From assembly GCF_002087085.1 (NCBI RefSeq), contig NZ_MWQY01000008.1:124001-188000 (forward strand): a stretch of 64,000 nt of DNA. Direction: 5' to 3'. The notes beneath the pieces were generated by a model. The model had not been told where the DNA came from. It saw only the letters and a list, made by a program, of their open reading frames with translations, and ran no database searches. Made by a program: the position numbers and the translations under genes. Below, piece after piece: positions 14,453-32,046 of this stretch; the first letter of the stretch is position 1, and each line of letters opens with the position of its first letter.

Positions 14453-14492
14453 ATATGGTATATATGCTATAGCAACAGTATCCAAGAGTCAA
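14450..14492 (-). promoter_or_regulatory. Promoter and palindromic operator of the gntR-tkt unit
   Basis: Minus strand TTGACT (14492-14487), 17 nt, TAGCAT (14469-14464); palindrome CATATAT-GGT-ATATATG at 14450-14466 covers the start codon. Confidence 0.65.
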
Positions 14493-15022
14493 GTTTTCTG
14501 GAATGAAAATGAAAAGGAATGGCCCGGCCGGGGATTCAACAGGGGCCGCCGGTTGTCCGGAAGAATGGTATCCCGCTTTCTTACAGCCCGTTGAAACCAG
14601 GCCCGCACCAGGGCGGCATCTTCGCGCCACAAGTAGAGGTCGGCGAATCCGCTGCGTAAATTATCTGCCAGACGGGGCGGAATAATGTCCCGCTTGACCA
14701 GGGAAGGGCTTCCGGCGGAACAGGTGGGAAGAAGCACACCGAAAAGACCTGTGTGCAGGTAGCGATCTGTTTTCATCAGGGAGGCAAAGATCTCCCGGTC
14801 GACCTGATCGGATGCAGCCGTCTGGGGACCGACCAGGACAATCGTGGCGACGGCGTTCCGGATGTGGTTATCCTTTACCTCGGCTTCCGGCAAGCCTGCG
14901 GTAATCTCGCTGCTGTCGGTACAGCGCAGGCAGTCGCTCCGAATGAGTCGCTGAAACAGCAGCGCATACTCCTGGTCGATCGGTTGGAGATAACAGATGT
15001 GAATTCTGAAGGGTGATATCAA
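14489..15022 (-). CDS. TIR-like domain protein (MTH538/DUF1863, ThsB-like), degenerate N-terminal motif
   Basis: TIVLVGPQT..SDQVDREIFASL, GLFGVLLP, IPPRLADN..GFA..Y.W match MTH538-type TIR; TTG start at 15022 after a GGGGAGGAG RBS. Confidence 0.7.
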   Translation of the reverse strand: MISPFRIHICYLQPIDQEYALLFQRLIRSDCLRCTDSSEITAGLPEAEVKDNHIRNAVATIVLVGPQTAASDQVDREIFASLMKTDRYLHTGLFGVLLPTCSAGSPSLVKRDIIPPRLADNLRSGFADLYLWREDAALVRAWFQRAVRKRDTILPDNRRPLLNPRPGHSFSFSFQKT

Positions 15023-15085
15023 AGCTCTCCTCCCCTGAAAACTGGTATATACACCCATTTTTCAGTCGGGAGAAGCAAATCGTCA

Positions 15086-20586: not shown

Positions 20587-21294
20587 ATGCAGCAGAGCCC
20601 TCCTTTACGTGAAACAGATCTCTACCCCCCCGTCAAAGCCTGGCTTGAGGAGCTGGGCTATACCGTCCGTGGAGAAGCAGCGGGACTGGATGTGGCTGCG
20701 GTAATTGAGCATGATACGGGAGAAGAGCTTATCGCGGTGGAGCTGAAAAAAGGCCTCTCCATGAAGCTCCTCGCCCAGGCTGTGGAACGGCAGGACTCGG
20801 CGGACGGGGTCTACCTGGCCCTGCCGGCGGAGGGAAGCAGCTTTCCGGAGAAGCTTCGGCCCTACCTCAAGCTTATCCGCCGCCTGGGTCTGGGACTCCT
20901 CCTGGTCCGCTTTTTAAGCCGCCGGGTCAGAATCGATCCGGTTCTGCATCCCGGAAAGGGCGGCATCCGCAGAAACAAACGCCGCCGGTGGGCGATACTG
21001 CGGGAGGTCCGCGGCCGTTCCGGCGACCACACCCCAGGGGGAATCCGGGGCAGGGTTGTAACCGCCTACCGCGAGGAGGCCCTCAGCCTGGCCCTCCTCC
21101 TGAAGGAACACGGTGAGCTCAGCCCCGCGGGCTGCGTCAAACTCGGAGGGCCTGAAAAAGCGGGGAGAATTCTGCTGGACAACCATTACAGCTGGTTCGA
21201 GAAGGTCCGCACCGGGGTCTATCGGCTGAGCGGCGGGGGAGAAGCCGCCCTCGGGGAGTATGCCGACATCGTCCGGCTGATTCGGAAGGAATAA
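20587..21294 (+). CDS. DUF2161 family putative PD-(D/E)XK protein
   Basis: RETDLYPPVK..GYTVRGE, IAVELK, QAVERQ, TAYRE.AL, NHYSWFE. Confidence 0.8.
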   Translation: MQQSPPLRETDLYPPVKAWLEELGYTVRGEAAGLDVAAVIEHDTGEELIAVELKKGLSMKLLAQAVERQDSADGVYLALPAEGSSFPEKLRPYLKLIRRLGLGLLLVRFLSRRVRIDPVLHPGKGGIRRNKRRRWAILREVRGRSGDHTPGGIRGRVVTAYREEALSLALLLKEHGELSPAGCVKLGGPEKAGRILLDNHYSWFEKVRTGVYRLSGGGEAALGEYADIVRLIRKE

Positions 21295-21457: not shown

Positions 21458-23001
<1,544 letters not shown>

Positions 23002-23005
<4 letters not shown>

Positions 23006-24021
23006 GTGATGACAACCGATTTGTCATTTATCGCGATGATAAGCAGGGCGTTCGGGTAGAGGCTCGCATTGAAGAGGAAAGCATCTGGCTGACCCAGCGT
23101 CAGATTGTCGAGCTCTTTCAGACTGCCAAATCAACGGTCAGCGAACATATCAGGAATATTTTTACTGAGGATGAGCTGCTCCCCGAGGCAACTGTTCGGA
23201 AAATCCGAACAGTTCAAAAGGAAGGAAGTCGTGAGGTTTCCCGGGAGCTGGATTACTACAATCTCGATATGATTATCTCCCTTGGGTACCGCATCAATTC
23301 TAAAATTGCTACCCATTTTCGACAGTGGGCCACCCAGAGACTCAAAGAGTACATTGTAAAAGGCTTCACCATGGATGATGAACGCCTGAAGAACCTCGGC
23401 GGCGGGAACTACTGGAAAGAGCTGCTGGACCGTATTCGCGACATCCGCTCCAGCGAGAAGGTCATGTACCGTCAGGTGCTGGAACTCTACGCCACCGCAA
23501 CCGACTATGATCCCAAAAGTGAGGAGAGCCTTCAGTTTTTCAAGATCGTACAAAACAAGCTCCACTACGCCGCCCACGGCCACACCGCCAGCGAGGTGAT
23601 TTATCTGCGGGTTGACAGCGACAAGCCCTTCGCGGGCTTAAGCAACTTTAAAGGCAGTCAGCCCACCCAGGCCGAAGCCATGATCGCCAAAAATTATCTG
23701 AGCGTTCAGGAGCTGCAGGTTTTGAATAACCTTGTATCCGCGTATTTTGATCTGGCCGAACTGAACGCCATTGAACAGCGAGAAATGCGTATGGCCGATT
23801 ATGTACGGGAGCTGGATAACATTCTGGGTTCAACCGGACGCGCGGTCCTGGAAAACTCCGGCAATATCTCCCACTCCCGGGCAGTGGACAAAGCCAGATT
23901 GGAATACAAAAAATACAAAGCCAGGACGCTGGAAAACGTGGAAAAAGAGTACCTGGAAACCATCGCCGCACTGGAAAAACAGGCCAGGAGAGAGAGCCGG
24001 AAAAAGGGCGGTGAGGGATGA
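23002..24021 (+). CDS. RhuM family DNA-binding ('virulence') protein
   Basis: [55 protein letters not shown]. Confidence 0.9.
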
Positions 24022-24830
24022 AAACAAACAAAACGATAATAGTCCTGGACGAAGAAATCCGGGTCACCAAGGATGACTATATTTTACTAACCGACATGCT
24101 ACGCTCCAAGGATGGAAACTTTTTCATCACCGATTGGCTACGAAACCGCAACACTCTTGAATATCTTGGCATATGGGAGAGGGTCCATAACCCCAATTTT
24201 AATTGGGGCGAATTCGCCATAATTAAAAGTCAGGCCGGACTTAACAGGTATAAAATTAGCGTAAAAGAATGGGTGGCCAAAACCAATGCAATTGGAATAC
24301 AGGCTAAAGCCGGACGTTACGGCGGAACCTATGCACATTCTGATATTGCCTTTGAATTTGGAATGTGGATCAGCGCAGAATTTAAAATATATCTTGTTAA
24401 GGAGTTTCAAAGGCTAAAAAACGAAGAGGCTAAGCAGCTCGGCTGGGAGGTTAGACGCCAGCTTACCAAGATAAACTATCGCATTCATAGCGAGGCGGTT
24501 AAAGAAAATCTGATTCCTCCGACGTTGACCAAACAGCAAACCAGCCTTGTCTATGCTACAGAAGCGGACCTGTTGAACATGGCTCTTTTCGGCAAGACAG
24601 CCAGGCAGTGGCGAGAGGAGAACAACGACAAAAGCGGCAATATACGTGATTACGCCAATGTCTCCCAACTCGTTTGCCTGGCCAACCTTGAAACCCTGAA
24701 CGCACACTTGATCCAGCAGAATATGGTTCAGGCGGAACGATTGAAGCTGTTAAACCAGACCGCCATTCAACAGATGCGCCTGTTGACAGAAAGTAACAAT
24801 ATTAAAGAACTGCAGGGCGGTGAGGGATGA
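24018..24830 (+). CDS. KilA-N domain protein
   Basis: WLRNRNTLEYLGIWE, GRYGGTYAHSDIAFEFGMWIS, KINYRIH. Confidence 0.9.
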   Translation: MKTNKTIIVLDEEIRVTKDDYILLTDMLRSKDGNFFITDWLRNRNTLEYLGIWERVHNPNFNWGEFAIIKSQAGLNRYKISVKEWVAKTNAIGIQAKAGRYGGTYAHSDIAFEFGMWISAEFKIYLVKEFQRLKNEEAKQLGWEVRRQLTKINYRIHSEAVKENLIPPTLTKQQTSLVYATEADLLNMALFGKTARQWREENNDKSGNIRDYANVSQLVCLANLETLNAHLIQQNMVQAERLKLLNQTAIQQMRLLTESNNIKELQGGEG

Positions 24831-24866
24831 GGAAGGGAGTCTCACGCGAAGGCGTAAAGAAGATGG

Positions 24867-24934
24867 AACCACTGAAAACACTGAAGACACGGAAAGGGAC
24901 TAACAATTCTGTGTATTCCGTGTATTCCGTGGTT
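24867..24934. repeat. 9-bp-periodic palindromic element, copy 1
   Basis: AACCACTGAAAACACTGAAGACACGGAA...TTCTGTGTATTCCGTGTATTCCGTGGTT. Confidence 0.9.
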
Positions 24935-24954
24935 AAAGCATTGGGAGTTATGGC

Positions 24955-26193
24955 ATGAGCGAATTGAGCTTTATAGAAAGGCTGCTGGATGGGGCCCGGG
25001 TTGAATGGAAGGCGTTGGGGGAAGTTTGCGACGTTTTTACAGGTGGTGAGGCTCCAGAAAACAGTATCAAAGGCTCAATACCAACTAACGACTACAAATA
25101 CCCAATTTATGGAAACGGTGCCGAAATATACGGTTACACAGACACCTATAGAATTGATAAAGATGCTGTAACTATCTCATCTATTGGTGCAAATACCGGT
25201 ACCATCTATTACAGGGAAGCATTTTTTACCCCAATTATTAGGCTCAAAGTATTAATGCCGAAGCAGGAATGGCTAATATCAAAGTACATTTTTCATTATT
25301 TGGCATCTCAAACAATTTATAGCAAGAAAAGCAGTGTTCCAAATATGAACGCTGCGGATGTAAAAAGAATCCAAATCCCCATCCCCTGCCCGGATGATCC
25401 GGAAAAATCCCTGAAGATCCAGGCGGAAATTGTCCGTATTCTGGACGCGTTCACCGAGCTTAGCACCGAGCTTAGCACCGAGCTTAGCTTGCGGAAGAAG
25501 CAGTATGGGTACTATCGGGAACGCTTGTTGAGTTTTGAAGAGGGGACCACGAAGGACACGAAAAGCACGAAAGGGGTTGAGTGGAAGACCTTGGGGGAGA
25601 TAATAAAAAAGTCATACTCTGGAGGGACCCCCACGGCGGGCAATTCAGAATATTACGATGGTGGGACAATTCCTTGGTTGAGAACACAAGAAGTCAGATT
25701 TTCTGATATTGAGAAAACAGAAGTTAAGATAACGTCTTCTGCATTGAAAGATACCGCAGTTAAATGGATTCCTACAAATTGCGTTATTATTGCAATTTCA
25801 GGTGCTACCGCAGGAAGGTCTGCGATCAATAAAATACCTTTAACGACAAATCAGCACTGTTGTTGTTTAGAAATCGATCCTAAAAAGGCATTATACCGAT
25901 ATGTTTTTCATTGGGTAAGTTTAAACTATAATAATCTGAAAGGACTTGGGCAAGGTGCTAGAGGGGATCTCAATTCGGGAATCATAAAGAATTTTCAGAT
26001 ACCTATTCCGTATGCTGATGATCCTGAGAAATCGCTTAATGAACAAGCCCGGATCGTCGCCATCCTTGACAAGTTTGATGCCCTTACCAACTCCATCTCC
26101 GAAGGACTGCCCCGGGAAATCGAATTGCGGAAGAAGCAGTACGAATATTACCGGGATATGTTGTTGAGTTTTCCCAAGCCGGAGGAGGAATAA
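24955..26193 (+). CDS. hsdS: Type I R-M specificity subunit with two TRDs
   Basis: VEWKALGEV, QAEIVRILDAFTEL, RKKQY.YYR..LLSF repeated; type IC-like conserved regions. Confidence 0.95.
   Translation: MSELSFIERLLDGARVEWKALGEVCDVFTGGEAPENSIKGSIPTNDYKYPIYGNGAEIYGYTDTYRIDKDAVTISSIGANTGTIYYREAFFTPIIRLKVLMPKQEWLISKYIFHYLASQTIYSKKSSVPNMNAADVKRIQIPIPCPDDPEKSLKIQAEIVRILDAFTELSTELSTELSLRKKQYGYYRERLLSFEEGTTKDTKSTKGVEWKTLGEIIKKSYSGGTPTAGNSEYYDGGTIPWLRTQEVRFSDIEKTEVKITSSALKDTAVKWIPTNCVIIAISGATAGRSAINKIPLTTNQHCCCLEIDPKKALYRYVFHWVSLNYNNLKGLGQGARGDLNSGIIKNFQIPIPYADDPEKSLNEQARIVAILDKFDALTNSISEGLPREIELRKKQYEYYRDMLLSFPKPEEE
25453..25488 (+). repeat. 3 x 12-bp tandem repeat ACCGAGCTTAGC (TELS)3 in the hsdS central conserved region
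   Basis: Exact triplication; same position as the TAEL repeats of EcoR124I HsdS. Confidence 0.9.
25546..25572 (+). repeat. Left half of the palindromic element, in frame inside hsdS (TTKDTKSTK)
   Basis: ACCACGAAG GACACGAAA AGCACGAAA matches the left arm at 26198. Confidence 0.8.
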
Positions 26194-26197
26194 TGGA

Positions 26198-26797
26198 ACC
26201 ACGAAAGACACAAAAATCACGAAAAAGAATCTTGAATACTTCTTTCGTGTATTTTGTGCATTTCGTGGTAAAAAAAGAGCAGTATGATCAAAGTGATTTG
26301 TTGTTGAGCTTTCCCAAACCGGAGAGGGATTAATGGAACCACAGAATACACAGAAAACACGGAAAAAGAATAATAAAATTTCCGTGTATTCCGTGGTTTC
26401 CGTGGTTAAAAAAGAGCTTGACAAATGAGCAATAAAAAAAGGACTTATTCTTGCAAGCCAATGAGCTGCTTCAAGATTTCAAGACGCTGATTGAGCAAGG
26501 TCGACATAAGGCGGTTGCGGCGGAAGCAATATGAATATTACCGGGATATGTTGTTGAGTTTTCCCAAGCCGGAGGAGGAATAATGGAACCACGAAAGACA
26601 CAAAAATCACGAAAAAGAATCTTGAATACTACTTTCGTGTATTTTGTGCATTTCGTGGTAAAAAAAGAGCAGTATGATCAAAGTGATTTGTTGTTAAGCT
26701 TTCCCAAACCGGAGGAGGATTAATGGAACCACAGAATACACAGAAAACACGGAAAAAGAATAATAAAATTTCCGTGTATTCTGTGTTTTCCGTGGTT
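26198..26797. repeat. Palindromic elements 2-5 (26198-26269, 26337-26407, 26588-26659, 26727-26797) in a 390-bp-period duplication
   Basis: Near-identical blocks offset by 390 bp; each element is preceded by an hsdS-tail copy ending in TAATGGA. Confidence 0.92.
26425..26523 (+). pseudogene. 5' remnant of a second DUF1016 allele (frameshifted, truncated)
   Basis: AAGACGCTGATTGAGCAAGGTCG..TAAGGCGGTTGCGGCGG matches about 26875-26917; A7 instead of A8 near the start; joins an hsdS tail. Confidence 0.8.
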
Positions 26798-26814
26798 AAA
26801 AAAGAGGTCAAGCA

Positions 26815-27861
26815 ATGAGTAAAAAAAAGGATGGTGTAAGCAAGACGAGTCCTGCGGATTTACTTCGCGATGTGAAGACGCTGATTGAGCAAGGTCGGTA
26901 TAAGGCGGTTGCGGCGGTCAACAGTGCGCTTACCGTTACCTATTGGCAAGTTGGCAAACGCATTAACGAAGAGGTGTTGCAGGGCGAACGGGCGGAATAC
27001 GGAAAACAGGTTGTGAAGACATTGGCCAAAGAGCTTGTCATAATCTACGGCAGAAGTTTTGAGGCGAAAAACCTTCGGCGTATGATGCAATTTGCGGAGA
27101 TTTTCCCGGATATTGAGATTGTCGTTCCGCTGGCACGACAATTAAGCTGGTCACATTTTTTAGTATTAATTCCTTTGAAATCACCTGAAGCCAGACTCTT
27201 TTATGCTCGCACTGCCTGTGAATCACACTGGAGCAAGCGGGAGTTAAGGCATCAGATTGAGCGCAAAGCCTTTGAACGCTCCGAAATAGCCGATACCAAA
27301 TTGGCTTTGGCAGAAGCAAATCATTTGAACGGCAACTTCAAGGATCCCTACTTTTTGGATTTTCTAGGATTGAAAGAAGGTTACATGGAGAATGAGCTGG
27401 AAAATGCCTTGCTCAAAGAGCTTGAGTTGTTCATCCTTGAACTGGACAAGGGCTTTGCCTTTGTGGAACGCCAGAAGCGTATGATTATTGATGGCGAAGA
27501 TTTTTATCTCGACTTGCTTTTCTATCACCGGAAACTCAAGCGTCTGGTTGCAATCGATCTAAAAATAGACCGATTCAAAGCTGGATTTAAAGGACAGATG
27601 GAGCTTTACCTGAACTGGCTTGATAAATTCGAACGTCAGGAGGGTGAAGAAGCTCCGATTGGGCTGATACTATGTACGGAGGCGGGCACCGAACAGGTGG
27701 AACTGCTCAACATGCAGAAAGACAACATTATGGTGGCAGAGTATTGGACAAGTCTTCCGCCGAAAGAACTATTGGAGGAAAAACTTCACAATGCACTGAT
27801 TGAAGTCCGCGAACGGTTGGCGGAACAAAAGTTATTAGAGGGAGGTGGCGGATATGCTTGA
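26815..27861 (+). CDS. DUF1016/YhcG family PD-(D/E)XK nuclease-domain protein
   Basis: [51 protein letters not shown]. Confidence 0.92.
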
Positions 27862-27970
27862 TTACAAACCCACCACCGAAGGGCTGCCCCGGGAGATTGA
27901 ACTGCGGCGGAAGCAGTACGAATATTACCGGGATTTGCTGTTGAGTTTTCCCAAACCGGAGGAGGATTAA
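27854..27970 (+). pseudogene. 38-aa chimeric ORF carrying the hsdS C-terminal tail
   Basis: [38 protein letters not shown]; tail nearly identical to the HsdS C-terminus. Confidence 0.75.
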
Positions 27971-27973
27971 TGG

Positions 27974-28181
27974 AACCACAGAATACACAGAAAACACGGA
28001 AAAAGAATAATAAATTTTCTGTGTATTCCGTGTTTTCCGTGGTTAAAAAAGAGCAGTATGATCAAAGTGATTTGTTATTAAGCTTTCCCAAGCCGGAGGA
28101 GGATTAATGGAATCACAGAATACACTGAAAACACTGAAAAAGAATAATAAAATTTCTGTGTATTCCGTGTTTTCCGTGGTT
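27974..28181. repeat. Palindromic elements 6-7 (27974-28044, 28111-28181)
   Basis: Same 9-bp-periodic arms and hsdS-tail linker as elements 2-5. Confidence 0.9.
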
Positions 28182-28197
28182 AAAAAAGAGGTTTTCC

Positions 28198-28578
28198 GTG
28201 AATGAGGTTCTGTTATTTGAAGAAGAAAGCTATCAGATCCGTGGTGCTATTTTTGAAGTTTACCGTGAGATGGGTTGTGGCTTTCTTGAGGCTGTCTACC
28301 AGGAGTGTCTTGAGAAGGAACTAAACAAGCAGAGAATTCCGTTTATTGCCCAACCGGAACTTGAGTTGTTCTATAAGGATGAAAAACTTCAACAAACTTA
28401 CAAGCCTGATTTAATTTGCTATGACCAAATCATTGTTGAACTTAAAGCAGTCAGAGAAGTTTGCGATGAACATCGTGCCCAGTTACATAATTACCTGAAA
28501 GCAACAGGGCTTAAACTCGGGTTGTTAGTTAACTTCGGTCACTACCCAAAAGCAACCATTGAGAGGATAGTTAAATGA
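28198..28578 (+). CDS. GxxExxY protein (PD-(D/E)XK-like nuclease fold)
   Basis: GCGFLEAVYQECL, YKPDLIC..IIVELKAV, QLHNYLKATG..LGLLVNFG. Confidence 0.92.
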   Translation: MNEVLLFEEESYQIRGAIFEVYREMGCGFLEAVYQECLEKELNKQRIPFIAQPELELFYKDEKLQQTYKPDLICYDQIIVELKAVREVCDEHRAQLHNYLKATGLKLGLLVNFGHYPKATIERIVK

Positions 28579-28588
28579 CATTTTATCC

Positions 28589-28616
28589 TTTAGTGTTTTC
28601 CGTGTATTTCGTGGTT
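28589..28616. repeat. Right half of the palindromic element after GxxExxY
   Basis: TTTAGTGTTTTCCGTGTATTTCGTGGTT. Confidence 0.75.
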
Positions 28617-28639
28617 AAAATAAAAGAGGTAAAAAATTA

Positions 28640-31600
28640 ATGATTGATTATACAAAACCCATTGCAGAAACAAACAGGTTTATCGTCCTCGACAAATACA
28701 CCAAGGAATGGCAGGTTGCTGAAAGCTATCAAAGTGAAGCCGATCTGGAGCGGGAGCTCATTGAAGACCTGCAAAACCAGGGCTATGAATACCTTCCAGA
28801 CCTGAACTCGTCGGATAAAATGCTGGCTAATGTGCGTAAACAGCTTCAGGTTTTGAATGGCGTAACCTTCCAGGAGGGTGAGTGGAAACGCTTTGTTGAA
28901 CAATACCTGGACAAACCCGGCGATACTCTCATCGACAAAACCCGTAAAATACATGATGACTATATCCATGATTTTGTCTTTGATGACGGCCATATTGAAA
29001 ACATTTACCTTCTGGACAAAAAAAATATTGCCCGCAATAAGGTTCAGGTCATTAAACAGTTTGAACAGACCGGCTCCCAGGCCAATCGCTATGATGTAAC
29101 GATTCTGGTAAACGGTTTGCCCTTGGTACAAATCGAACTGAAAAAACGCGGCGTGGCTATCAGGGAAGCCTTTAATCAGGTGCACCGCTACAGTAAAGAG
29201 AGTTTCAATACTGAGAACTCTTTATTTAAATATCTGCAGCTTTTTGTCATTTCCAACGGTACCGACAGCCGCTATTTTGCCAATACAACCAAACGTGATA
29301 AAAACAGCTTTGACTTTACCATGAATTGGGCGAAAGCCGACAATACCCTGATAAAAGATCTTAAAGACTTTACCGCTACCTTTTTCCAGAAAAACACTCT
29401 GCTGAACGTGTTGCTCCATTACTCGGTATTTGATGTCAGTGATACCTTGCTGGTCATGCGTCCCTACCAGATTGCCGCCACGGAACGTATTTTGTGGAAA
29501 ATTAAAAGCTCCTGGCAAGCCAAAAACTGGAGCAAGACAGAAAGCGGCGGGTATATTTGGCACACCACCGGTTCGGGTAAGACCTTGACGAGCTTTAAGG
29601 CTGCCCGTTTGGCTACCGAACTGCATTTTATTGATAAAGTGTTTTTTGTGGTGGATCGAAAAGACCTGGACTATCAAACCATGAAGGAATACCAGCGCTT
29701 CTCTCCCGATAGCGTCAATGGTTCCGACAGCACCGCCGGTTTAAAACGCAATCTTGATAAAGATGACAATAAGATTATCGTAACAACCATTCAAAAGCTC
29801 AATAACCTGATGAAAAGTGAAGGCAGCCTGCCTGTTTACCAGAAACAGGTTGTCTTTATCTTTGATGAGGCACACCGCAGCCAGTTTGGAGAAGCCCAAA
29901 AGAACCTGAAGAAGAAATTCAAACAGTATTACCAGTTCGGTTTTACCGGTACTCCCATCTTTCCGGAAAATGCCCTGGGAGCGGAAACCACAGGCAGTGT
30001 ATTCGGACGGGAGTTGCATTCGTATGTCATAACCGATGCCATACGGGATGAGAAAGTACTGAAATTTAAAGTTGATTATAACGATGTTCGCCCAAAGTTT
30101 AAAAACATTGAAAGCGAGCAGGACGAGAAAAAGCTCACCGCCGCGGAAAACAAGCAGGCCCTGCTGCATCCCGACCGTATAACTGAGATTACCCAGTACA
30201 TCTTGAATAATTACAGGCAAAAAACTCATCGTTCCCACGCCGGAGCCAAGGGCTTTAATGCCATGTTTGCCGTAAGCAGTGTTGATGCTGCCAAAGCCTA
30301 TTATGAATCCTTTAAAAACATGCAGAAGGAACCCGACGGCAATAAAAAGCTGAATGTGGCCACCATATTCTCTTTTGCCGCCAATGAAGAACAGGACGCT
30401 GTTGGTGAGATCCTTGATGAGAGCTTTGAGGTTTCAGCAATGGAGAGCAGTGCCAAGGAATTCTTGAGCGCTGCTATAGCTGACTATAATACTGCTTTTA
30501 AAACCAACTTTGGTGTAGACAGCAGAGGCTTTCAAAACTATTACCGCGATCTCGCCCAGCGGGTAAGAAATCAGGAAGTAGATTTGCTGATTGTGGTGGG
30601 CATGTTCCTGACAGGCTTCGATGCACCGACTCTGAACACCCTGTTTGTTGATAAAAACCTGCGTTACCACGGCTTAATGCAGGCCTTCTCACGTACAAAT
30701 CGTATTTACGATGCGACAAAAACCTTTGGGAATATCATTACTTTCCGGGATCTGGAACCGGCTACAGTCGATGCTATTACCTTGTTCGGTGATAAAAACA
30801 CCAAAAACGTTGTATTGGAAAAAAGTTATAAGGAGTACATGGAAGGTTTTACCGATATCACCACCGGCGAGGCCCGCCGTGGATATCTGGATGTGGTAGC
30901 AGAATTACAAAGACGTTTCCCAAATCCTGAAGAGATAGAAAAAGAGAAGGACAAAAAAGAGTTCGTCAAACTCTTTGGCGAGTATTTAAGGGTTGAAAAC
31001 ATACTTAATAACTACGATGAGTTTGCCGGCTTGAAAGCTTTGCAAAACGTCAATCTGGATGACCCCGAGGCGGTCGAAGCATTTAAGGAAAGACATTATC
31101 TGGATGATGACGACCTCACCGAGATGAAATCCATTGATGTTCCATCAGAACGCTTGATTCAGGATTACCGTTCTACTTATAACGACACCCGCGATTGGCT
31201 GCGTCGCGAGAAAGACGCTGACCAAAGAGATTCTTCCGGTATTGATTGGGATGATGTGGTTTTTGAAGTTGACTTGCTTAAATCCCAGGAAATAAACCTG
31301 GATTACATTCTTGAACTGATTTTTGAAAACAACAAAAGGAACAAGAGCAAGGCAGAATTAATTGAAGAGGTGAGAAGACTTCTGCGTTCCAGCCTGGGCA
31401 ACCGTGCCAAAGAAAGCTTGATGGTGGATTTTATTAATCAGACTGACCTGGATGATATGGACGACAAGGCAAGTATCATTGATGCGTTCTTTACATTTGC
31501 GCAAGCAGAACAAAAGCGTGAGGCTGATGAACTCATTCGTTCTGAAAGTTTAAATGAAGAAGCCGCAAGGCGTTACATTACATCATCATTAAAGCGAGAG

Positions 31601-31747
31601 TTTGCCAGTGAAAATGGTACTGAATTGAATTCAACTCTGCCTAAAATGAGCCCTCTTAATCCGCAATACAAAGCAAAAAAACAAAGTGTTTTCCAAAAAA
31701 TTGCTGCATTTGTAGAAAAATATAAAGGCGTCGGAGGTCATCTATGA
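28640..31747 (+). CDS. hsdR: Type I R-M restriction subunit (EcoR124I-like)
   Basis: QIELK nuclease motif, [35 protein letters not shown]. Confidence 0.97.
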
Positions 31748-32046
31748 CAAAAGCATTGTTTTTCCTGGTAGCGGCGATCCTGATACTCTCCATGTTCACC
31801 GGATGCCTGCCCAGGGAAACCCATCTGGCGGGAGAACGGCCCGCGGGCTTTCTTATGGGAATCTGGCACGGCTGGATTGCCCCAATCTCGCTGATAGTCG
31901 GGATATTCAGGCCCGGAGTCCGGGTTTACGAGCCCTTCAACAGCGGCTGGTGGTACGATTTCGGCTTCTACATCGCCATCATTTCCGGTTTCGGGGGAAT
32001 CAGCCTGACCCGTAAAAAGGCATCCGCTCACAGACAAAACCTCTGA
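31744..32046 (+). CDS. Small membrane lipoprotein, conserved hypothetical
   Basis: Lipobox-like [30 protein letters not shown]. Confidence 0.7.

Follow-up and report, generated by a model that had tools for sequence, protein, structure and literature searches.

The operon and its palindromes

The stretch of DNA analyzed here (the window) comprises 64,000 nucleotides (nt) of the assembly GCF_002087085.1 (contig NZ_MWQY01000008.1, positions 124,001-188,000 of the forward strand), from a genome of 4.2 Mb that is 97% complete. It contains a single co-directional type I restriction-modification (R-M) operon with nested passenger genes (Pfam; TIGR04256), the G+C content being 42-45% across 24-32 kb vs. 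53% genome-wide (Table 1). Seven palindromes and one half palindrome are present between the genes, and each is crossed by a short open reading frame (mini-ORF) that starts on the preceding stop and ends on the next start. In our reading, the palindromes are probably gene-less copies and arm relics of a selfish, hairpin-bounded cassette with a GxxExxY nuclease gene, and the mini-ORFs mostly leftovers of that cassette, not a ribosome relay kept by selection.

Table 1. Genes and mini-ORFs of the operon (window coordinates; aa, amino acids)
Feature	Coordinates	Strand	Remarks
hsdM (type I methylase subunit)	21458-23005	+	Pfam N6_Mtase 1e-119, HsdM_N; stop overlaps next start (ATGA)
RhuM-family passenger gene	23002-24021	+	Pfam Virulence_RhuM 1.6e-103
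KilA-N passenger gene	24018-24830	+	Pfam KilA-N 3.7e-22
Mini-ORF, 43 aa	24827-24958	+	ATG; spans hairpin 24863-24940
hsdS	24955-26193	+	Pfam Methylase_S 7.9e-46
Mini-ORF, 46 aa	26193-26333	+	ATG; type-A hairpin 26193-26275 and diverged hsdS 3' end relic
Mini-ORF, 31 aa	26333-26428	+	ATG; through type-B hairpin 26333-26412
DUF1016 N-terminal remnant and second hsdS-tail copy	26425-26583	+	26469-26523 89% like 26863-26917
Mini-ORF, 46 aa	26583-26723	+	ATG; second copy of hairpin mini-ORF pair
Mini-ORF, 31 aa	26723-26818	+	ATG; second copy of hairpin mini-ORF pair
DUF1016/YhcG PD-(D/E)XK passenger gene	26815-27861	+	Pfam DUF1016_N 2e-46, YhcG_C 3e-46
ORF from displaced hsdS 3' end, in hsdS frame	27854-27970	+	ATG; 8-nt overlap with DUF1016 stop
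Mini-ORF, 45 aa	27970-28107	+	Type-B hairpin with tail relic
Mini-ORF, 32 aa	28107-28205	+	Type-B hairpin; overlaps nuclease gene start by 8 nt
GxxExxY/PDDEXK_3 nuclease gene	28198-28578	+	GTG start; Pfam PDDEXK_3 2.8e-43; TIGR04256 3.8e-43
Mini-ORF, 21 aa	28575-28640	+	Through lone right arm 28589-28619, ends on hsdR start
hsdR	28640-31747	+	Pfam HSDR_N, SWI2_SNF2, EcoR124_C
100-aa ORF	31744-32046	+	Starts on hsdR stop (ATGA); no Pfam or NCBIfam match

The seven full hairpins are about 75-80 nt long each; the half element is a lone right arm. The arms, with AACCAC...GTGGTT at the ends, are each composed of three CACnGAA heptads that repeat every 9 nt; the right arm is followed by an A-rich tail containing a Shine-Dalgarno-like AAGAGG. 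There are two types, A (at 26193 and 26583) and B (at 24863, 26333, 26723, 27970, and 28107). The first hairpin, with its arms at 24867-24895 and 24909-24934, folds as RNA with -29 kcal/mol (z -4.9), the type-A hairpin in 26193-26333 with -29.2 kcal/mol, and the type-B hairpin that follows it with -30.2 kcal/mol (z -7.2). Over all hairpins, the energies range from -21 to -39 kcal/mol (z -3.6 to -10) on either strand, and neither strand is clearly favored. The hairpins do not qualify as intrinsic terminators, and in Rfam they match no family at threshold (the only matches, sub-threshold, are to microRNA precursors and reflect the hairpin shape). We did not observe copies outside the operon in the rest of the 4.2-Mb genome. 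In three type-B hairpins (26347-26374, 26737-26764, and 27984-28011), the left arm and loop contain a weak sigma-70-like match (9/12; TACACA, 16 nt, AATAAT) that may be due to chance.

Five of the seven full hairpins are found in three copies of one unit, made of an hsdS 3' end, a hairpin, a second and diverged hsdS 3' end, and another hairpin (26125-26424, 26515-26814, and 27864-28215). The first two copies, with 95% ungapped identity, form a tandem duplication of ~390 nt in which ~100 nt of the DUF1016 start are copied along. Three displaced hsdS gene ends carry their own frame, stop, and TAATG. Across the nuclease gene, the left arm (28104-28138) and the lone right arm (28589-28623) form a 35-nt inverted repeat, 77% complementary, and the minimum-energy fold of 28095-28630 pairs that left arm with the distal right arm. 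As a whole, this 536-nt fold is no more stable than shuffled sequences (z -1.0).

A chain of mini-ORFs through the hairpins

The nine mini-ORFs described in an earlier note on this DNA are all found in the ORF list and by reading the sequence, and the junctions bear out its statement that each of them starts on the previous stop and ends on the next start. All stops and next starts between 23002 and 31744 overlap or abut, as in a translationally coupled operon; among them are ATGA (24827, 24955, 26425, 26815, and 28575), TAATG (26193, 26333, 26583, 26723, 27970, 28107, and 28640), and 8-nt overlaps (27854 and 28198). The ORF list gives the frame at 27854 as 27845-27970, from a GTG, and the ATG at 27854 is in the same frame. 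Beyond hsdR, the chain runs on into the 100-aa ORF at 31744 (ATGA). The same note had the chain from hsdM to hsdR break only at the DUF1016 remnant: the remnant is there, but the gap is bridged by an ATG-started ORF (26425-26490) directly followed by a TTG-started one (26491-26583).

In the window, the seven full hairpins and the half element are all read in one phase, as had been claimed. The hairpins are open in the ATG frame in 7/7 cases, in the +1 frame in 3/7, and in the +2 frame in 2/7. That some mini-ORFs are duplicates, also pointed out earlier, agrees with the tandem duplication and the third unit copy, and the use of a single frame is largely explained by the common descent of the three unit copies.

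A widespread family of hairpin-bounded nuclease genes

The same arm pattern occurs in at least 124 stretches of genomes from many phyla (80 of these loci were examined, with 206 neighboring ORFs scanned around them). At least 545 relatives of the window nuclease are found in metagenome contigs; the best 80 loci were examined, of which 74 have enough flanking sequence. The family is characterized by inverted CACnRAA heptad arms (2-3 heptads or more, 9-nt register, AACCAC...GTGGTT), and the window hairpins display this trait. In the gene-carrying form, the nuclease gene is enclosed by a left and a right arm, as is the window gene at 28198-28578. A left arm is present just upstream of the nuclease gene or within its first codons in 55/74 loci, a right arm just downstream in 51/74, and both in 40/74, with arms in the wrong orientation in only 12 and 19 loci. 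The two arms of a locus are more similar to each other than to the arms of other loci (identity 0.83 vs. 0.74 in 42 loci; at the variable positions 0.69 vs. 0.47, a difference reached by 0/5000 permutations).

By manual tally, restriction or other defense genes are direct neighbors in 38/80 nuclease loci. They include hsdS/M/R, EcoEI_R_C, DUF4391 with N6_N4 methylase, BREX PglZ/BrxL/BrxB, RhuM, DUF1016, and Schlafen. The 80 loci found by the arm pattern, on the other hand, are mostly solo hairpins beside ordinary genes.

The cargo is predicted to be a compact PD-(D/E)XK nuclease with an intact catalytic set. Residues E31, D71, E81, and K83 are invariant in 48/48 sequences and presumably form the E...D...ExK set, their roles being taken from general knowledge of the superfamily. 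The structure model has a pLDDT of 94, and its best fold matches are Cas4 SSO0001 (E 6.5e-4, TM 0.61) and lambda exonuclease; a sequence search gave no solved structure. In the accessible part of the survey by Steczkiewicz et al. (PMC3424549), PDDEXK_3 is entered as "Unknown." A literature search, mostly at the level of abstracts and with supplements outside its scope, returned no published description of these hairpins.

Several relatives deserve separate mention. The plasmid collection contains only distant relatives of the nuclease, with at most 54% identity. On the Treponema saccharophilum plasmid pTS1 (L240 2440-2930), an annotated GxxExxY gene (54% identity) has an 11-nt inverted repeat on its two sides; AAAAAAGAGG and the GTG start of a Fic gene come next, which amounts to the window layout in minimal form. 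In another genome of the class (G181:C1, ~1,656-1,664 kb; L230), eight arms occur within ~30 kb; one of them forms an in-frame piece of the N-terminal region encoded by a DNA methylase-like gene (..GSYGTTKDTKGTKIDFEVL..), and in a sister copy the arm is followed by an in-frame GxxExxY gene. Tandem blocks of left-arm-type heptads, spaced by ~95 nt or 260 nt, take the place of hairpins at L030 (2000-2250) and L042 (2000-2550).

Leader starts on host stops and stop-poor arms

In 41 of the 59 nuclease loci with a detectable left arm, that arm is inside the open frame of the nuclease, and in 26 of those 41 a start codon (ATG in 23) is present at the 5' end of the arm. Of the leaders read from the arm start, 19 are MNHE.HE.HE and 7 are MEPQNT..; L135 and L143, the closest relatives of the window gene, belong to the second group. 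The arm start overlaps the stop of the upstream gene in 14/28 loci within defense operons vs. 4/25 others. With hsdS upstream, the typical junction is ..A-TGA-ACCAC.. (L175, L189, L063, and G002). The stop of a long upstream frame ends exactly at the arm for 22/67 arms in nuclease loci and for 8/50 arms in generic loci. Judged by its sequence, the ATGGAACCAC of the window placed on TAA is apparently the same device as the coupled leader start of the cassette.

The composition of the arms is skewed: T makes up 3.7% of left arms and A 5% of right arms, and there is no stop in any frame in 34/46 left arms and 35/45 right arms. The mini-ORFs of the window start like the nuclease leader and run on through the loop and the right arm because nothing stops them.

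Conservation of the chain

A strict relay was defined by ATG-started mini-ORFs of at least 10 aa whose start is at -8 to +1 relative to the preceding stop, and shuffled, rotated, and reverse-complemented sequences served as controls (Table 2). A lenient rule (ATG/GTG/TTG start, at least 5 aa, -11..+3 range) was uninformative, with 20/57 observed vs. 12.1 shuffled, 18 reverse-complemented, and 21 rotated, and was replaced by the strict one. Under the strict rule, relays are no commoner than in the controls, with 4/38 in defense operons and 0/48 elsewhere.

Table 2. Strict relays at homologous elements and in control sequences
Interval	Observed	Shuffled	Rotated	Reverse complement
Nuclease gene to next gene, defense operons	3/25	1.8	3.5	2
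Nuclease gene to next gene, other contexts	0/12	0.0	0.5	0
Upstream gene to nuclease gene, defense operons	1/13	0.9	2.0	2
Upstream gene to nuclease gene, other contexts	0/18	0.1	0.0	0
Generic hairpins between co-directional genes	0/18	0.4	0.5	1

The right-arm end is read in all three phases by relay ORFs: phase 0 in the window, L139, and L172, phase 1 in the L063 hairpin, G002, and L187, and phase 2 in the L063 half element. In L063, the ORF of the first hairpin ends 15 nt before the next start, and L148 has no coupled ATG.

For the window itself, a phase-shuffling null was constructed in which the hairpins and the existing ATGA and TAATG gene starts are kept and 1-3 sites in each interval receive random phase shifts. 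For the five independent intervals, the probability that the relay survives is 0.30, 0.73, 0.40, 0.33, and 0.33 (product 0.009), which is moderately unusual, not extraordinary, for one window from a very large scan.

Contigs of relatives in four public DNA runs provide natural variants, and their changes were applied in silico to the window. The relay is kept with 9-nt (one-heptad) indels and in a simpler arrangement with 26270 joined to 26798 (hsdS, one hairpin, DUF1016). In run X2, KilA-N is missing from one contig (depth 80), where 24022 is joined to 24839 and the joint has 19 other letters, among them a partial left arm; worked out by hand, this variant differs by 12 nt and keeps the frame. 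Recombinant arrangements broken at hairpins are also present in these contigs. With +G at 26756 or +G at 28003, the ORF ends in the hairpin loop. All four runs share two 1-nt deletions (28621 and 28637), with which the last mini-ORF stops 6 nt short of hsdR. A -9 variant at 26388 says nothing, since under the ATG-only rule even the unaltered chain from 26333 fails.

The 24827 mini-ORF can be compared with its ortholog in G004, of the same genus. There is no indel, and the 9/132 differences are distributed as 2/4/3 over the codon positions, without third-position bias in this comparison; the region evolves faster than the neighboring gene (23/813). Only one difference is found in the 68 nt of the hairpin vs. 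eight in the 64 nt of the flanks, and with 8/9 differences outside the hairpin, it is the hairpin that is conserved and not the peptide.

The proposal of the earlier note that selection keeps the mini-ORFs as a ribosome relay is weakened rather than refuted, with relays at the level of the controls, all phases in use, and variants that break the chain. Its description of an unbroken chain through every hairpin holds, and the element is built to sit in an operon, with the start on the host stop and the AAGAGG tail, but selection on the mini-ORFs as a relay finds no support in these comparisons.

Origin of the hairpins and of the mini-ORFs

The anatomy of the hairpins, their family link, the leader use, the composition of the arms, and the duplications are the observations on which we base the proposal that the window palindromes probably derive from the GxxExxY cassette. 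In its full form, the cassette would be a small nuclease gene of the GxxExxY (PDDEXK_3) type, with a left arm before it and a right arm after it, and would reside at gene junctions, very often inside restriction or other defense operons. In many gene-carrying copies, the left arm would act as the translated leader of the nuclease, with its ATG on the stop of the upstream host gene; since the leader ATG is on that stop, the element would borrow translational coupling from the host and parasitize termination-reinitiation to express the nuclease. The A-rich AAGAGG tail past the right arm would allow the next host gene to start, and the long stem may be processed like the intervening sequence (IVS) of 23S rRNA. 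The cassette is presumably mobile. Where a copy loses its gene, or where arms or hsdS tails recombine with each other, solo hairpins and lone arms would be left, and in the contigs of relatives the rearranged variants break at such places.

Where the nuclease gene is missing, the mini-ORFs would then be what is left of the cistron of the cassette itself. They would be made up of the ATGGAACCAC start on the host stop, of arms hardly able to hold a stop (left T-poor, right A-poor, with a period of three codons), and of displaced hsdS ends, which recombination between hairpins and tails would have copied and which contribute a frame, a stop, and TAATG of their own. Cassette ancestry and duplication, and not selection on the individual mini-ORFs, would explain most of the regularity of the chain. 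The chain may still be translated by reinitiation. Because the hairpin starts 4-5 nt after the mini-ORF ATG, the size of the 30S footprint predicts poor de novo initiation, whereas a ribosome that terminates at the overlapping stop would by then have opened the base of the stem.

Several observations weigh against this reading. Every interval of the window is bridged with exact overlaps, and a null that preserves the structure yields only ~0.009. At four different 3' junctions (to hsdS, to DUF1016, to the nuclease gene, and to hsdR), the phase fits throughout. The L063 half element and the G002 hairpin are bridged at both ends in other frames, as selection for bridging predicts. A PDDEXK_3 gene is present beside the hairpin in only 2/80 pattern-found loci (L029 and L063), so that solo hairpins may spread on their own, and the nine other PDDEXK_3 genes of the same genome have no arms, which suggests that arms mark one subfamily. 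Neither the rule that every hairpin adjoins a GxxExxY gene nor the rule that every GxxExxY gene has arms can thus be maintained. We did not identify a target-site duplication, an empty site, or a transposition enzyme for the cassette.

Selection could instead keep an open and overlapping frame at each hairpin, so that terminating ribosomes reinitiate, unwind the stem, and reach the next gene, the insertions being non-polar or the HsdR:HsdM/HsdS ratio being set in this way. We consider this unlikely. It would account for the bridging of all four inter-gene intervals, for the low phase-shuffling value, for the bridging ORFs in other frames in G002 and L063, and for the in-frame change in the variant without KilA-N and the tolerance of 9-nt indels. 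A strong Shine-Dalgarno (GGAGGAGGA) is present 4 nt before the ATG in the mini-ORFs after hsdS tails, and a stem so close behind the ATG favors reinitiation over a de novo start according to coupling models in the accessible part of a review (PMC12548453). Against a selected relay stand the control-level counts of Table 2, the single-nucleotide variants, the incomplete chains of L063 and L148, and the rate and codon-position pattern in the comparison with G004. The downstream genes also have their own AAGAGG outside the stem and thus need no unfolding; and a folded hairpin is a poor loading site for Rho, which counts against the need for a relay. A related possibility joins cassette and relay. 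The operon-dwelling selfish cassette would bring its own translational adaptors (a start codon on the host stop, stop-free arms with a three-codon period, and a Shine-Dalgarno tail) and nest in coupled defense operons without polarity, its gene-less hairpins being leader cistrons that guide ribosomes past the stem and set HsdR against HsdM/HsdS. This combination is unlikely in our estimate.

The hairpins might also act mainly as RNA, with a long stem cut by RNase III or shielding the transcript, so that segments of the operon mRNA are uncoupled or stabilized and the reading frames are irrelevant. The folding energies and z values, the pairing of the left arm with the distal right arm around the nuclease gene, and the conservation of the hairpin over its flanks in G004 point in this direction, and RNase III excision of the Coxiella IVS, in the accessible part of its description (PMC4990558), offers a precedent. 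Yet no Rfam family is matched at threshold, neither strand is clearly favored by the folds, the 536-nt fold as a whole is no better than shuffled sequences, and the conservation of the hairpin could equally operate at the DNA level; we regard such a main role as improbable. More improbable still, to the point of being hardly credible, is an integron-like cassette array with the palindromes as attC-type recombination sites. Passenger genes are indeed separated by imperfect palindromes of attC-like length in one orientation, and recombinant orders occur in relatives. However, there is no integrase or other recombinase domain among the ORFs located at 13.7-38.3 kb, and KilA-N is bounded by perfect 17-nt direct repeats (24005-24021 and 24814-24830, 100% identical), not by hairpins. 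The core sites of attC read RYYYAAC and GTTRRRY, and by eye the termini GGAACCAC and GTGGTTAAAA do not fit them.

Comparison with known elements

The nearest described architecture is the IVS of 23S rRNA. In the accessible part of the Coxiella description (PMC4990558), a 28-bp terminal inverted-repeat stem and heptameric repeats before an ORF in the loop are reported, together with excision by RNase III. The elements have in common a stem of ~28 bp, 5' tandem heptameric repeats just before the ORF, a small loop gene (S23p in Coxiella) of unknown role, and versions without the ORF, and the IVS is likewise regarded as selfish. Location and cargo separate them: the window element is found between protein-coding genes of an operon and not in rRNA helices (helix 25 or 45), with no rRNA match in 23800-28900, and its cargo is a PD-(D/E)XK nuclease whereas that of the IVS is a four-helix-bundle protein. 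The left arm is, in addition, often part of a reading frame here.

Like REP/BIME, ERIC, Correia/NEMIS, RUP, and BOX elements, the window hairpins are short imperfect palindromes co-transcribed in operons, with solo copies outnumbering the gene-carrying form and with occurrence in many phyla. Unlike REP/BIME and repeats that resemble miniature inverted-repeat transposable elements (MITEs), all copies are here in one operon, the heptad arms have a 9-nt period, and there is a defined cargo gene. A REP/BIME system with its RAYT was rejected because there are no copies outside the operon and PF01797 (Y1/RAYT) has 0 matches in the 97%-complete genome. As for the traits of MITEs, inverted repeats are present, no duplication can be distinguished from the palindrome, and the cargo is a nuclease and not a known transposase.

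Rickettsia palindromic elements (RPE) are inserted in frame in protein-coding genes. Similarly, palindrome-derived sequence occurs here in the protein frames of the nuclease leader, of hsdS (TTKDTKSTK), and of the methylase gene of G181. RPE differ by their unrelated sequence, by the location of most copies here between genes, and by the presence here of a cargo gene. The hsdS insert TTKDTKSTK (25546-25572) is in frame, left-arm-like, and between the two hsdS halves; it corresponds to a 9-aa gap in the alignment to the L063 hsdS, which has no insert, and is also present in hsdS of another genome of the class (G328, L227). Contigs of relatives show 9- and 18-nt deletions at 25548, within this insert.

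The ATGA and TAATG overlaps, in which a short cistron runs up to the start of the next one and might open structure on its way, resemble translational coupling and bicistronic-design cassettes as presented in the accessible part of PMC12548453. Coupling is, however, a mechanism and not a family of elements, and the short cistrons of the window are putative by-products of a mobile hairpin. Passenger genes (DUF1016, RhuM, Fic) nested between the core genes of type I R-M systems have been reported (PMC9881135), and in the window RhuM, KilA-N, DUF1016, and GxxExxY are similarly placed between hsdM, hsdS, and hsdR. The accessible part of that work lists passengers and does not describe hairpins, tail relics, or coupling.

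Other features of the host operon

The ATGA junction and a Shine-Dalgarno-like stretch are both within the 17-nt repeat on either side of KilA-N. In the central conserved region of hsdS (~25455-25490), a 12-nt repeat present three times encodes TELS-TELS-TELS, and TAEL repeats are found at the same place in L063; in EcoR124-type enzymes, the copy number of such repeats sets the length of the spacer in the recognition site. A DUF2161 PD-(D/E)XK protein is encoded directly upstream of hsdM (20587-21294, + strand). Nearby, a defense-like gene (14489-15058, - strand) has a weak ThsB_TIR-like match (5.9e-6).

Implications

The hairpin cassette is widespread and barely described, and the window adds to it the link between mini-ORFs and a coupled leader start as well as a quantified null for the relay. 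How passenger genes enter type I restriction operons and defense loci without breaking the operon is not understood, and the window shows one route, in which a nuclease cassette bounded by hairpins is placed directly at the host stop and makes that codon part of its start; reshuffling of the array leaves relics of gene ends and solo hairpins behind. Should the relay prove to be used, engineered leader-cistron designs would have a natural parallel in it. Descent and base composition can largely account for a chain of coupled mini-ORFs that looks perfect, which matters for the calling of small ORFs and for inferring selection from patterns of overlap.

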